A stretch of DNA of 64,000 bases from Escherichia coli. GTDB taxonomy: Bacteria; Pseudomonadota; Gammaproteobacteria; Enterobacterales; Enterobacteriaceae. The stretch is taken from the NCBI RefSeq assembly GCF_013122565.1, contig NZ_CP053258.1, one strand, 5' to 3'. The notes beneath the pieces were generated by a model. The model saw only the letters and a list, made by a program, of their open reading frames with translations. It was not told the origin of the DNA and did no database searches. Below are positions 50,550 through 53,760 of the stretch, in pieces. The stretch's first letter is position 1. The number at the start of each line of letters is the position of its first letter. The translations under genes were made by a program, and so were the position numbers.

Positions 50550-51700
50550 CTAAAACTGTTTTTCACAGCTTATATATGATCAAATACTCCTTACATAAAT
50601 AAGGAGAACAAAATGGAACTTAAAAAACTGATGGAACATATTTCTATTATCCCCGATTACAGACAAGCCTGGAAAGTAGAATATAAATTGTCAGATATTC
50701 TACTATTGTCTATTTGTGCCGTCATTTCTGGTGCAGAAGGTTGGGAAGATATAGAGGATTTTGGTGAAACGCATCTCGATTTTTTGAAGCAATATGGTGA
50801 TTTTGAAAATGGTATTCCTGTCCATGATACCATTGCCAGAGTTGTATCCTGTATTAGTCCTGCAAAATTTCACGAGTGCTTTATTAACTGGATGCGTGAT
50901 TGCCATTGTTCAGATGATAAAGACGTCATTGCAATTGATGGGAAAACGCTCCGGCACTCTTATGATAAGAGTCGTCGCAGGGGAGCGATTCATGTCATTA
51001 GTGCGTTCTCAACAATGCACAGTCTGGTTCTCGGACAGATCAAGACGGATGAAAAATCTAATGAGATTACAGCTATTCCTGAACTTCTTAACATGATGGA
51101 TATTAAAGGAAAAATCATCACAACGGATGCGATGGTGTGCCAGAAAGATATTGCAGAAAAGATACAAAAACAGGGAGGTGATTATTTATTCGCTGTAAAG
51201 GGAAATCAGGGGCGACTAAATAAAGCCTTCGAGGAAAAATTTCCGCTGAAAGAATTAAATAATCCAAAGCATGACAGTTACGCAATTAGTGAAAAGAGTC
51301 ACGGCAGAGAAGAAATCCGTCTTCATATTGTTTGCGATGTTCCTGATGAACTTATTGATTTCACGTTTGAATGGAAAGGACTGAAAAAATTATGCGTGGC
51401 AGTCTCCTTTCGGTCAATAATAGCAGAACAAAAGAAAGAGCCAGAAATGACGGTCAGATATTATATCAGTTCTGCTGATTTAACCGCAGAGAAGTTTGCG
51501 ACAGCGATTCGAAATCACTGGCACGTGGAGAATAAGTTGCTCTGGCGTCTGGATGTAGTAATGAATAAAAGACGACTGCAAAATAGGAAGAGGAAACGTT
51601 CAGGGATAAGACATATTGCAATTAATATTTTGACGAAAGATAAGGTATTCAAGCACGGTTAAGACGTTCGATGAAGACAGCGACTACCTGCGTCAGTCTT
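50550..51700 (+). mobile_element. ISAs1-family insertion sequence (H-repeat element); ends approximate
   Basis: Contains the intact 349-aa transposase ORF. The left boundary is estimated from where homology to the degenerate second copy at ~53200 begins; terminal inverted repeats were not resolved. Confidence 0.7.
50613..51662 (+). CDS. ISAs1-family transposase (H-repeat-associated protein), 349 aa
   Basis: C-terminal motif [18 protein letters not shown] is characteristic of the ISAs1/H-rpt transposase family; the protein is lysine-rich and its AT-rich coding sequence contrasts with the flanking core genes. Confidence 0.85.
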
Positions 51701-51848
51701 TGTGAGGAGCGGACTCTAGTAATCCAACTTTGTTGTTAGGTTTTACTCGCGGAATAATCATGGGCGAATTTTATTAAAAATGTATATTTTCCTAATTAAA
51801 AACATGTTTAAAAAAGAAACACAACTTTCAAGCTAGGTTACTTATGAT

Positions 51849-53012
51849 ATGAAGTCAACATATTCTAAAATTAAAATTGCACATGTTCAATTGATGCCAC
51901 TACTGAGTGGTGTTCAGCGAGTATCGTTACAAGAATTCGAATTATTACCAAATGAACAGTTCGACATTAATTTAATTTGCAAAGAGAGTGGACCATTAAC
52001 TGATTATTTAGATGATAGTGTAAGGGCTTTTTTTGTCCCGACATTATGTAGAAATATATCGCTCATAGAGGATATGAAATCATTAATATCTTTATATAAA
52101 TTATTGAAAAAAGAAAAATATGATATCGTCCATACACACTCCTCTAAAACTGGTATTCTAGGGCGGATAGCTGCGCGGCTGGCAGGAGTTCCTTGTGTAG
52201 TACATACTGTACATGGCTTTGCCTTTGAAAGCACAAAAAGAAAATCAGTAAAGCTCGTATATAAATGGCTGGAAATATTTGCAGCCAAATGCACTACCCG
52301 GTTAATTTGTCTTCATAATGAAGATAAAGAAATATGTATAAAAGAACTATATGTTGATCCAATGAAAATTTCTGTAATTCCAAATGGAGTTGATTTGGAA
52401 AAATTCGCTCCAGCAATTAATAAAGGAGACTTAAAAGAAAAAATATTAGGGTTAAAAAGAAATAGCTTTGTATTTACCATGGTGGGACGGTTGTGGCCAC
52501 AAAAAAATCCGTTATATTTTGCTGAAGCAGCAAAGTATATTATAGAAAATAACTTAATACCTGATTCAGTTTTTGTCATAGTTGGTGATGGGGAGTTGAT
52601 GAATGATTTAAAATACAATTATCAAACAGATATGAATTTAAAAAAAAGGTTATTACTTTTAGGCTGGCGAAATGATATCCCAAACATATTAAAAGCAAGT
52701 GACGTTTTTGTTCTTCCTTCTTTATGGGAAGGAATGCCTCTTGCCATATTAGAAGCTCAATCTACAGGGTTACCATGTATCGTTTCTAATATCAATGGTA
52801 ATAATTGTTTGGTTAAGAATGAATTTGATGGATTCTTAATTGAACTTAATGATATTGATAGCTTTATAAATGCGTTAGTTAGAGTGACAGACGATAAAGT
52901 CTTAAACATTATGTCAAAAAATTGCCGTAATAAAATTGTTAATGAATTTAATATAGTTAAAAGAGTGGATAAAATTAAAAATCTATATATTGATATGGTT
53001 GTTAATAAATGA
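51849..53012 (+). CDS. O-antigen glycosyltransferase, GT4 (GT1-fold) family, 387 aa
   Basis: 387-aa ORF with the retaining-GT signature EGMPLAILEAQSTGLPCIVSNI; AT-rich. Confidence 0.75.
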   Translation: MKSTYSKIKIAHVQLMPLLSGVQRVSLQEFELLPNEQFDINLICKESGPLTDYLDDSVRAFFVPTLCRNISLIEDMKSLISLYKLLKKEKYDIVHTHSSKTGILGRIAARLAGVPCVVHTVHGFAFESTKRKSVKLVYKWLEIFAAKCTTRLICLHNEDKEICIKELYVDPMKISVIPNGVDLEKFAPAINKGDLKEKILGLKRNSFVFTMVGRLWPQKNPLYFAEAAKYIIENNLIPDSVFVIVGDGELMNDLKYNYQTDMNLKKRLLLLGWRNDIPNILKASDVFVLPSLWEGMPLAILEAQSTGLPCIVSNINGNNCLVKNEFDGFLIELNDIDSFINALVRVTDDKVLNIMSKNCRNKIVNEFNIVKRVDKIKNLYIDMVVNK

Positions 53013-53199
53013 TTGTGTGCTTTTAGAAAGTTTATATCAATATCGCACTGTATATTTTATTTTATGTAAATTTATTATGAATATAAAGGCATGGTAATTC
53101 ACATCATTATTTATATACAGACGCTGTTATTGGTATAGAGAAATATCATATAACATTAGTTTTCGCACAAAATGTAAAAAATGAAAGATTTATTACTAA

Positions 53200-53760
53200 G
53201 TAAGACTATTTTTGATAACCTATATATTATCAAATACTCTGTACATAAAGGAGGGAAATGGAACATGAAAAATAATAGTCGTATTTCTGTTAACCAATTT
53301 CAAACAACCTGGGAAAGTGGAACGTAAATTATTAGATATTTACTACTGATTATTTGCTCCTGCTTTGTCATTTCTGACGCAGAAGGATGGGAGTATACAA
53401 AGGATGTTTGTGAGACGTATGTCGATTTCTTGAAGCAATACGATGATTTGGGACATGGTACTCCTGTTCATAATACCATAGCTGAGTTCTATTCCGTATC
53501 AGTCCTATTAACTGGTTACGTGATGTTATTCTTCAGATTATAAAGACATCATTGCAGTAGGTGGAACTTAATAGCGGAGCAGAATAAAGAGTTTAAAATG
53601 ATATTCAATATTGTATCAGTTCTGATGGTTGTTTAAATTCTGAGAAGTCCGCGATCGTGATTTGAAACTGCTAGAATGTTGAGAATAATCTGCGCTGGTG
53701 TCTGGATGTAGTAATGAATGAAGAGAAGTGCTCAATAAGATAAGCAAAGCAGCTATGGAC
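53200..53760 (+). pseudogene. Degenerate, internally deleted copy of the ISAs1/H-repeat element
   Basis: Its 5' part (TATATATTATCAAATACTCTGTACATAAAGGAGGGAAATGG...GATTTCTTGAAGCAATACGATGATTT) and 3' part (...CTGCGCTGGTGTCTGGATGTAGTAATGAATGAAGAG) align to the ends of the intact copy at 50570..51600. Reading frame is broken by stops and the middle ~600 bp is missing. Confidence 0.75.

Follow-up and report, generated by a model that had tools for sequence, protein, structure and literature searches.

The JUMPstart leader of an Escherichia coli O-antigen gene cluster is followed here by an ISAs1-family transposase gene, one glycosyltransferase gene and a second ISAs1-like segment, which raises the question of how the bracket arose and whether it still acts on the cluster. 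The window, which is the whole stretch of DNA analysed (64,000 nucleotides), was described in an earlier note as holding an intact element and a deleted second copy of it, the footprint of IS-mediated gene capture or cluster remodelling. In the reading that we consider probable, dead H-repeat remnants of at least three generations flank a glycosyltransferase gene that is integral to the O3 cluster, and they are now probably inert. The upstream and downstream elements are called copy A and copy B below, and the gene between them GT4, after its family.

Identity of the locus and distribution of the arrangement

The genes are arranged in the order galF - JUMPstart - ... - wzx - wzy - ... - gnd, and the wzx-wzy pair is of O3 type, with 99.3-99.5% identity to 16 genomes annotated as O3 family flippase/polymerase. 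The flippase gene wzx (53854..55377, + strand) is the first gene 3′ of copy B and is 99.5% identical to the genes annotated as O3 family flippase in these 16 genomes. Positions 50080-53860 were found at 97-99% identity in 16 of 5426 complete E. coli genomes, annotated O3 family. On these matches, the locus is assigned to the O3 O-antigen gene cluster of E. coli, of which it forms the 5′ end. The O3 cluster has reportedly been described by Ren et al. in 2008, and Medina et al. are said to have published the O3 structure in 1994.

The interval from copy A through GT4 to copy B is kept entire in all 16 complete O3 genomes, so that the variants lacking GT4 that had been thought worth seeking among related strains did not appear. 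Among complete genomes, no O3-like cluster turned up that lacked GT4 or had it swapped, and the sequenced strains share a stable O3 architecture.

The leader, the upstream module and the left end of copy A

The JUMPstart leader (50337..50375, + strand) was identified by Rfam RF01707 (56.9 bits, E=1.4e-11) and contains the ops element GGCGGTAGCGT (50364-50374, + strand). Similarity to K-12 and other serogroups stops at ~50374-50376. An Rfam search of 49900-54000 returned no family besides JUMPstart, and the predicted fold of the JUMPstart-module RNA was nothing unusual (z = -1.6).

A module of 84 bp (50378..50461, + strand) is the outermost left part of a long-form H-repeat, starting with its own IRL-like TAGGGGAAGATCA and including a hairpin (ATGCAAAA...TTTTGCAT, 50412-50434). 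The module is not present in ordinary JUMPstart regions; it is ~90% identical to sequence 5′ of Rhs-linked H-repeats, there beginning with a perfect CAGGGAAAGATCA, and is also found in the O88 and O19 clusters. It is followed by a 7-bp tandem duplication, CAGGGAA/CAGGGAA (50462..50475, + strand), at the tip of the ISEc1 left inverted repeat. In alignment, O88 and the Rhs-linked copies have a single CAGGGAA, whereas O3 has the tandem.

The 5′ ~1 kb of copy A (50469..51490, + strand) is ISEc1/H-repeat sequence with a perfect canonical IRL, CAGGGAAAGATCA, at 50469-50481, the position at which megablast matches at other loci begin. Canonical IRL and IRR sequences were derived from five independent genomic copies, and only four IR-like motifs were found in the 64-kb window, each at a predicted terminus. 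Compared by 100-bp window with resident E. coli ISEc1, this part is mostly 93-97% identical, with lower values in the first ~100 bp after the IRL (85%) and at 50669-50768 (91%). Copy A starts at 50378 or 50469, depending on which left end is taken, and ends at ~51732, in place of the 50550..51700 proposed previously.

Copy A carries a damaged transposase and an apparently chimeric 3′ end

The 349-aa transposase ORF of copy A (50613..51662, + strand) was examined using NF033564, Pfam and tblastn against the 378-aa protein, and is pseudogene-like. It scored 376 bits against NF033564 (ISAs1 transposase; cut-off 70, model 1-314 of 314), where the intact protein scored 416 bits, and matched the Pfam domains DDE_Tnp_1_assoc (PF13808) and DDE_Tnp_1 (PF01609). 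These + strand matches confirm the ISAs1/H-repeat family named in the earlier note, and the RF01707 match confirms the position just after JUMPstart. The description of the gene as intact is contradicted by its indels, a lost motif and a length of 349 vs 378 aa.

A putative DDE triad, the core expected of ISAs1, is kept in alignment to intact ISEc1, at IAIDGK (D108), ITTDAM (D172) and HVENK (E306), with the catalytic residues assigned from the IS4-like motif. Relative to intact 378-aa ISEc1 transposases, the 3′ end has +1, -13, -1, -2, -11 and -1 indels. The +1/-13 indels scramble the NED..IRRGNAA motif, which is kept even in a 58%-identical relative. Residues 320-334 of the ORF are scrambled, and a -1 indel truncates the protein, with the C-terminal ~30 aa gone. 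Two substitutions, G175V and H310L, hit positions that are invariant among the intact copies examined. The transposase is predicted to be inactive. The presence of the DDE triad and a reading frame open for 349 codons are the counterpoints to a dead copy A; the case illustrates that an open 349-codon 'transposase' ORF may still belong to a dead chimera.

The 3′ ~240 bp of copy A (51496..51732, + strand) are an older H-repeat remnant, recognised by the six indels and by a degenerate IRR, TAATCCAACTTTG (51720-51732), in which 8 of 13 bases match. No target-site duplication was found 3′ of copy A, with GTAGCGT on the left side only. Two O3 genomes, 2022CK-00450 and KMi029, carry a tandem form (L002), in which a full ISEc1 whose IRR is perfect runs directly into an old 3′ fragment; that fragment begins at the position corresponding to 51401 of the window. 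Over most of the element up to ~51475, the window matches the full ISEc1 of L002 at 98-100% identity (96% in 50675-50774), and from ~51496 it has every indel of the L002 old fragment, one base substitution apart. The switch from ISEc1 to old remnant lies at ~51488-51496. Copy A seems to join a younger ISEc1 to an older 3′ remnant in one chimeric element, which is 360 bp shorter than the L002-type tandem form and looks like a deletion derivative of it. The direction from tandem to chimera is drawn from parsimony and a few diagnostic sites. At one site past the proposed crossover, the L002 old fragment differs from the window.

Copy B and its target-site duplication

Copy B (53136..53815, + strand) is an internally deleted ISAs1-family relic that runs from inverted repeat to inverted repeat. 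Its IRL TAGAGAAATATCA (53136-53148, + strand) matches the consensus at 10/13 positions and its IRR TTATCTTTCCCTG (53803-53815, + strand) at 11/13. The left end and 5′ tnp extend to 53566, 3′ tnp occupies 53569-53753, and the right end follows. Pairwise comparison by local BLASTN found copies A and B to be significantly similar (E=1e-60 and 3e-23, 71-74% identity); global MAFFT misplaced the 3′ part of copy B. Against A, canonical ISEc1 and all resident H-repeats alike, identity was 71-75% (~72%), and at ≥95% identity copy B was found only in the 16 O3 genomes. The earlier claim of a second copy at 53200..53760 that had lost its centre and reading frame and retained both ends is upheld for the similarity, the losses and the presence of both ends, and revised as to the span and the termini. 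Because identity is only 71-74%, copy B is not the same element as A. By its sequence, it is an old relic and not a second copy of A.

The pseudo-protein of copy B is without residues ~111-267, which include the second catalytic D, and ~326-356. It has several stops and frameshifts, its first D is changed to G, and it has no DDE coding capacity. With ~50% amino acid identity to ISEc1, stops included, it has the pattern of neutral decay. A protein search for a foreign donor of copy B was dropped, since hits to a ~50%-identical pseudo-protein in neutral decay would be uninformative.

The exact 7-mer TTATTGG occurs at 53127..53133 and 53817..53823 (unstranded), no more than 3 nt from either end of copy B (P about 0.004 by Monte Carlo), and these are the left and right halves of a probable target-site duplication. 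The check for duplications that had been proposed thus found one around copy B and a one-sided GTAGCGT at copy A. Since copy B has its own duplication, GT4 and wzx would already have been adjacent when it inserted.

GT4 and the case for a composite transposon

GT4 (51849..53012, + strand) encodes a full-length, 387-aa GT4-family glycosyltransferase with the Pfam domains Glyco_transf_4 (PF13439, residues 20-185) and Glycos_transf_1 (PF00534, residues 197-358). Homologues align over 96-99% of its length, and no NCBIfam equivalog scored above its cut-off. Copies A and B are both on the + strand and flank this single gene, so that the direct-orientation bracket around one glycosyltransferase gene was correctly described. 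Such a geometry would be expected if A and B were the arms of an ISAs1 composite transposon that brought GT4 between JUMPstart and wzx, and the missing target duplication at the right junction of A and the likewise IS-bracketed homologue of GT4 in O40 agree with that origin. The supposed arms, however, are only 71-74% identical and differ in age, with the 5′ part of A mostly 93-97% identical to ISEc1 and B ~72% identical to everything. The outer flanks also differ, with GTAGCGTATC on the left and ATTATTGGGT on the right, so there is no single duplication around the whole unit. The TTATTGG duplication of B speaks against GT4 having been captured by two IS acting as a composite, because the flanks of B were contiguous at its insertion and have not been separated by composite transposition since. 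Capture by a composite transposon is thus very improbable, and the locus serves as a reminder that a gene flanked by two IS remnants is not necessarily part of a composite transposon.

The composition and conservation of GT4 point the same way. Its G+C content (30.8%) is similar to that of wzx (28.8%) and to that of wzy. It is 99% identical in O3 genomes, with 4 nucleotide and 2 amino acid differences vs 17 in copy A, and divergence from Ceylon31 is lowest in GT4, at 0.34% of nucleotides against 1.2-1.3% for the IS remnants and 3.8% for the spacers. The best explanation is that GT4 is an integral, selectively maintained O3 gene, rather than something that A and B carried between them as a composite transposon. 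The earlier reading as a footprint of gene capture or cluster remodelling can be kept for remodelling, which is reasonable given the junction shared with O88 and the lost right duplication, and given up for capture of GT4 by the pair, in view of the TTATTGG duplication and the G+C content.

Recombination and transcription across the elements

The direct orientation of A and B had also led to the proposal that recombination between them could delete GT4. In its stronger form, the direct repeats would drive reversible or frequent deletion of the gene. In another account, the IS between ops and wzx would attenuate RfaH-dependent transcription. GT4 is inactivated in 3/16 O3 genomes, so its loss is tolerated in some lineages. 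These three losses arose independently, through ISEc45, ISVsa5 and a split ORF, and not by A x B recombination, of which no deletion product was found among the 16 O3 genomes. The strains with a disrupted GT4 are HSP425, IAL7252 and IAL7255. The longest exact match between A and B is 20 bp, within sequence of ~72% identity; this falls short of the ~23-27 bp that make up the minimal processing segment of E. coli RecA recombination. Deletion of GT4 by this route is unlikely because the longest exact match is this short and no such deletion was seen. As for transcription, no terminator-like site was found on the + (sense) strand, and promoter and terminator scans gave results at chance level. A present-day switch or regulator is an extremely improbable account of the arrangement.

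Proposed history of the locus

In the history that we favour, that of dead remnants around an integral gene, a long-form ISEc1 (the 84-bp module plus ISEc1) would have come to sit 3 nt after ops, with a junction as in O88. Its 3′ part would later have been replaced by the older, indel-ridden H-repeat remnant. The simplest route would be recombination of a full ISEc1 with an adjacent old remnant, the tandem state persisting in two O3 genomes, and the resulting chimera, copy A, would have been left with a damaged transposase and a defective right end. Copy B would be a much older ISAs1-family element that entered the GT4-wzx intergenic region by simple transposition, leaving a 7-bp duplication, and then probably decayed neutrally through ~28% substitutions, two internal deletions, stops and frameshifts.

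Today the elements are most likely without function. They are probably transcribed through within the RfaH-dependent operon, given that they share its orientation and that no terminator-like site was found on the sense strand. The upstream H-repeat probably marks the joint at which the low-G+C O3-specific genes, from GT4 onward, were fused to the conserved galF-JUMPstart flank. Past IS-associated remodelling of the O3 cluster is plausible, and the historical role of the elements is what we infer from these remains.

Relation to known H-repeats and cluster junctions

Copy A shares its IRL, its NF033564 and Pfam domains and the 84-bp module with the H-repeat (H-rpt)/ISEc1 group (e.g. yhhI and ydcC; Rhs-associated), and differs from ISEc1 in its replaced 3′ end, a 349-aa rather than 378-aa product, a degenerate IRR and the lack of a target duplication. 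Transposition activity of E. coli H-repeats has not been observed (PMC3032704), and H-repeat remnants at O-antigen cluster recombination junctions have already been described (PMC3715488). In Salmonella enterica group D2, an H-repeat remnant lies at the recombination junction (Xiang et al. 1994, reviewed in PMC3715488). As in O3, this is a decayed ISAs1/H-repeat at the boundary of blocks with different history and is read as a relic of IS-mediated assembly. Both parental clusters of D2 (D1 and E) are known, whereas no donor was identified for O3, and O3 has two or three generations of elements, one of which (B) came in by simple insertion and carries a duplication of its own.

Replacement of glycosyltransferases in association with IS has been reported from related O-antigen clusters of E. 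coli (Iguchi et al. 2015, PMC4379981; O24/O56 in PMC7685785). As in O3, IS elements adjoin glycosyltransferase genes at the cluster edge and are implicated in their gain or loss; unlike in O3, the comparisons there are between pairs of nearly identical clusters set apart by an IS-flanked segment. The O3 arrangement is a known kind of evolutionary scar, neither an active nor a new system. The locus leaves unchanged the accepted view that joints of assembly and remodelling in O-antigen clusters are marked by H-repeats and other IS, and its main value is to correct the annotation and to serve as a small case study. The ops-proximal H-repeat junction of O3/O88, the parallel bracket in O40 and the independent loss of GT4 in 3/16 O3 genomes are modest additions.

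Comparison with the O88, O40 and O19 clusters

O88 shares the ops/module+ISEc1 left junction with O3. In its orthologous insertion the transposase is intact at 378 aa and the module+ISEc1 unit has GTAGCGT to its left and right, whereas O3 has the repeat on the left only and has lost the right end too. The downstream genes of O88 (acetyltransferases, rfbBAC) are unrelated to those of O3.

The closest relative of GT4 is found in O40 (70% amino acid and 73% nucleotide identity), where the 5′ end of the cluster likewise reads JUMPstart, H-repeat, GT4 and H-repeat debris. The bracketed O40 homologue is a coincidence beyond what an independent simple insertion of copy B alone explains. It could reflect an H-repeat event in the common ancestor of the O3 and O40 genes that took the glycosyltransferase gene from its usual place near gnd to the front of the cluster, beside an H-repeat, the H-repeats having since turned over by new insertion, gene conversion and decay. 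What brackets GT4 in O3 today would on that view descend, in decayed form, from a unit common to both clusters and possibly once mobile. We hold this as a tentative possibility. The two genes are mutual closest relatives, and each is the first gene after JUMPstart and an H-repeat and is followed by H-repeat debris. No ISAs1 element was called alongside the next relatives (63%, 62% and 47% amino acid identity), two of which adjoin gnd, and a 2.1-kb contig is the sole source for the 63% relative. The O3-O40 divergence of GT4 (27% of nucleotides) is of the same order as that of B from ISEc1 (28%), and nested or tandem H-repeats are seen repeatedly.

Against a shared ancestral unit, the junctions differ, with the O40 upstream H-repeat inserted ~38 bp after ops and without the module (3 nt after ops and with the module in O3). 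The spacers between IS end and GT4 are not alignable, and the downstream elements of O40, which are ISEc1-like plus a 64%-identical ISAs1 member, are not B-like. Copy B is no closer to the diverged O40 element #3, or to the old 3′ remnant of copy A, than to canonical ISEc1, and no orthology among the downstream relics was demonstrable. Moreover, B has its own duplication in O3, and with two serogroups only, the likeness may be a coincidence at a permissive 5′ intergenic site. It is doubtful that O3 and O40 preserve an ancient H-repeat-linked GT4 module in which ISAs1 moved the gene to the JUMPstart-proximal head and then re-inserted into or beside its own relics, always co-oriented with the operon. 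If they do, the ops-proximal site would be a preferred landing pad and a portable patch of homology for O-antigen cluster exchange.

A glycosyltransferase of the GT4 family beside the module+ISAs1 unit in O19 was set aside as another lineage, with 31% identity to the O3 protein. Nested or tandem H-repeats recur in the L002 form, in elements #2 and #3 of O40 and in the module plus ISEc1.

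H-repeats are the ISAs1-family members of E. coli. The glycosyltransferase gene (GT4, 51849..53012, + strand) bracketed by two such elements is a real feature, yet an ordinary one, of a kind already known. Its worth lies in corrections to an earlier note: the upstream element (copy A) reads as a chimera, the downstream one (copy B) as an independent insertion and GT4 as a resident gene, and deletion by recombination between A and B is neither expected nor was it seen. H-repeat remnants at O-antigen cluster junctions are a classical observation, for example in Salmonella group D2 (PMC3715488), and IS-associated replacement of glycosyltransferase genes has been described in E. 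coli O-antigen clusters (PMC4379981, PMC7685785). Transposition of E. coli H-repeat copies has never been observed (PMC3032704).

Cluster type

The ORFs near the feature were ordered wcaM (47616-49010), galF (49173-50078), the ISAs1 ORF, GT4 and then a long membrane protein, with a JUMPstart leader at 50337-50375 (Rfam, 56.9 bits) containing the ops element GGCGGTAGCGT at 50364-50374. RefSeq annotation already listed 'ISAs1 family transposase (x2)' and 'glycosyltransferase family 4 protein' at this site. By megablast against 5,426 complete E. coli genomes, 50080-53860 was matched end to end in 16 genomes (97-99% identity), and the wzx-wzy segment (53860-57600) matched the same 16 genomes only (99.3-99.5%). 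Strain Ceylon31 carries, by annotation, an 'O3 family O-antigen flippase' and an 'O3 family O-antigen polymerase' downstream of this stretch; an L-RhaNAc-type pathway comes next, and then gnd, ugd and wzzB. Because matches to wzx-wzy and its surroundings were confined to 16 O3-annotated genomes, the window evidently contains the E. coli O3 O-antigen gene cluster, a reference cluster that has been sequenced (Ren et al. 2008, cited in PMC5643014). No complete genome was identical to the window over 50080-57600 when compared with all 16 O3 genomes (best identity 98.9% over JUMPstart-GT4-copy B and 99.5% over wzx-wzy), which places the source strain in an O3 lineage that the complete RefSeq genomes lack.

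Copy A

Element ends were set by aligning five H-repeat/ISEc1 copies from unrelated contexts (the O88 cluster, one insertion in rhsB and three Rhs- or ydcC-linked copies). Similarity among these copies began at CAGGGAAAGATCA and stopped at TAATCTTGCCCTG, an imperfect inverted repeat pair, and a degenerate search of the 64-kb window for the repeat motif returned four sites only, all at the predicted termini of A and B. The left repeat of copy A lies at 50469-50481, and its 7-bp tip is duplicated in tandem just before it (50462-50468). The right end (TAATCCAACTTTG, 51720-51732) keeps only 8/13 matches. In keeping with the proposed family and a DDE core, the ORF at 50613-51662 matched the whole of NCBIfam NF033564 'ISAs1 family transposase' (376 bits, cut-off 70) as well as Pfam DDE_Tnp_1_assoc and DDE_Tnp_1.

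Copy A had been called intact, and this description did not hold. Overall it was 90% identical to its counterpart in the O88 cluster, an intact gene for a 378-aa transposase, relative to which it carries a +1 indel near 51567, a 13-nt deletion near 51598 and a -1 deletion near 51648 that leads to an in-frame stop at 51660, followed by -2, -11 and -1 deletions. The protein keeps D108, D172 and E306 and is missing ~30 C-terminal residues; its conserved 'NEDDCKIRRGNAAELF' stretch, kept even in a 58%-identical ISAs1 relative from the O40 cluster, is swapped for a different 11-residue string. Two substitutions, G175V (in DAMGCQ) and H310L, fall at sites invariant in seven intact copies and in the 58%-identical O40 relative. 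Most other O3 genomes have one additional A in the run 51384-51389, which disrupts the gene still more.

A variant with 360 extra bp at this site is present in two of the 16 O3 genomes, 2022CK-00450 and KMi029. In this tandem form (L002 3390-5030), a full-length ISEc1 whose right repeat is perfect runs directly into a second, old 3' H-repeat fragment beginning at the window equivalent of 51401. Copy A was 98-100% identical to the full ISEc1 of the tandem in most 100-bp windows up to ~51475 (96% in 50675-50774), and from ~51496 on it held all indels of the old fragment, with one base different. The simplest reading, drawn by parsimony from a few diagnostic sites, is that copy A would be a deletion product of the tandem, left when the two 3' repeats, which are direct, recombined. 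Copy A is thus evidently a damaged chimera and not an intact IS.

Copy B

By local BLASTN, two segments of copy B (53136-53815) were homologous to copy A: 53162-53564 aligned with 50510-50941 (71.5%, E=1e-60) and 53569-53722 with 51418-51569 (74.2%, E=3e-23). Neither outcome that the note had named as refuting it, dissimilar segments or a transposase lacking the DDE core, was therefore seen. A third block (53736-53815) matched the right end of the canonical element, and terminal repeats were placed at 53136-53148 (TAGAGAAATATCA) and 53803-53815 (TTATCTTTCCCTG). The ends are kept and the centre and frame are lost, as first described, but the term 'second copy' fits poorly, with only 71-75% identity to both copy A and canonical ISEc1. 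Using sensitive blastn, copy B was found at an identity of at least 95% in the 16 O3 genomes only; the ~24,000 other E. coli H-repeat places were all 60-80% identical to it. Codon-by-codon projection gave ~50% amino-acid identity to ISEc1 with several stops and frameshifts; residues ~111-267 (including the second catalytic Asp) and ~326-356 are lost and the first Asp is replaced by Gly, a pattern attributable to long neutral decay. The flanks (GTTATTGGTA left, ATTATTGGGT right) have TTATTGG in common, no more than 3 nt from each end (Monte-Carlo P ~0.004 under local base composition). Given this heptamer at both ends, simple transposition would have brought B into a GT4-wzx intergenic region that already existed. 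Judged from these features, copy B stems from an old insertion of its own and is not a duplicate of A.

Glycosyltransferase gene

Both elements lie on the + strand and flank a single GT4 gene, as reported, and this gene holds complete Glyco_transf_4 and Glycos_transf_1 domains (Pfam). Capture of GT4 by A and B as a composite transposon, which this arrangement had brought to mind, is not supported: the two arms are unlike in sequence and in age, copy B is bounded by a target duplication of its own, the pair as a whole has mismatched outer flanks, and the G+C content of GT4 (30.8%) resembles that of wzx (28.8%; next glycosyltransferase gene 31.4%, wzy 25.9%) as opposed to copy A (38.5%). GT4 is best regarded as a resident O3 gene, not cargo of the pair. 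GT4 looks selectively maintained: its 1,164 bp held 4 nt differences from Ceylon31, whereas copy A held 17, copy B 8 and 239 bp of spacer 9. Three of the 16 O3 genomes nonetheless have an inactivated GT4, through three distinct events: an ISEc45 insertion in HSP425 (L019), ISVsa5 at the 5' end in IAL7252 (L020) and a split ORF in IAL7255 (L021). These strains are possibly O-antigen variants or rough strains, with assembly error an alternative for IAL7255.

Loss of GT4 through recombination between the two elements had also been proposed. This appears unlikely, since the longest identical A/B run is 20 bp (within ~72% identity) and the entire A-GT4-B interval was kept in 16/16 O3 genomes.

Junction with the ops element

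The match of the window to K-12 and most other genomes ends at ~50374-50376. An 84-bp module (50378-50461) follows, which opens with the IRL-like TAGGGGAAGATCA and contains a small hairpin. At Rhs-linked H-repeat loci the module is ~90% identical and opens with a perfect CAGGGAAAGATCA; it occurs beyond the window at L003 (O88) 6299-6385, L007 579-662, L008 2504-2590 and L018 (O19) ~6001-6090, and has the appearance of a 'long-form' H-repeat's outer end. The unit of module plus ISEc1 sits at the identical ops junction in several O88-type clusters and is found within the O19 cluster as well. In O88 the unit, with its intact 378-aa transposase, is flanked on both sides by GTAGCGT (L003 6285-6298 and 7672-7681), of which O3 has only the left one. 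Since the left GTAGCGT of O88 is the 3' end of ops, the presence of both places the insertion in the 3' end of ops itself; the pair is a target duplication and indicates that the long form transposed in one piece. With only the left GTAGCGT remaining in O3, the right end of an H-repeat, or a point within it, would be where O3-specific DNA was attached. To that extent the suggested IS-mediated remodelling of the cluster stands, without capture of GT4 by the pair.

The left junctions of O3 and O88 are identical though their elements are ~10% diverged; shared ancestry followed by gene conversion may explain this, as may a favoured target site. O19 also holds a long-form ISAs1 element with a 378-aa ORF that looks intact (L018 6001-8702); it is flanked by a GT2 gene and by the GT4 gene that comes last before gnd. 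This GT4 is only 31% identical to that of O3.

Comparison with O40

The nearest non-O3 relative of GT4 by protein search (70% identity) is in the O40 cluster, which is ordered galF - JUMPstart - H-repeat - GT4 - H-repeat fragment - third ISAs1 element (64%-identical) - GT25 - wzy - GT4 - wzx. The next relatives (63%, 62% and 47%) had no ISAs1 element called beside them; those at 62% and 47% are at the gnd-proximal cluster end, and the one at 63% comes from a 2.1-kb contig with only one upstream gene visible. This distribution suggests an old H-repeat-associated relocation of the GT4 lineage to the operon head. Descent of O3 and O40 from one ancestral H-repeat-GT4 module could account for both relatives being H-repeat-bracketed at the cluster head, but is rather doubtful: the first O40 H-repeat starts ~38 bp after ops without the 84-bp module, a junction different from that of O3, the spacers cannot be aligned, and the relics downstream of GT4 are not orthologues. 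In O40 (L010 6670-11152 and L015, including NCTC9040), the three ISAs1-family elements around GT4 are all frameshifted and co-oriented with the operon, the third being inserted into the second.

Transcription and orientation

No terminator-like site was found on the sense strand from galF to wzx, and promoter-like sites in this interval were no more frequent than expected by chance. The ISAs1 elements inside O-antigen clusters (A and B of the window, the O88 element, three in O40 and the O19 element) were all co-oriented with the operon, amounting to about six independent insertions. Selection against polar opposite-strand insertions may account for this co-orientation.
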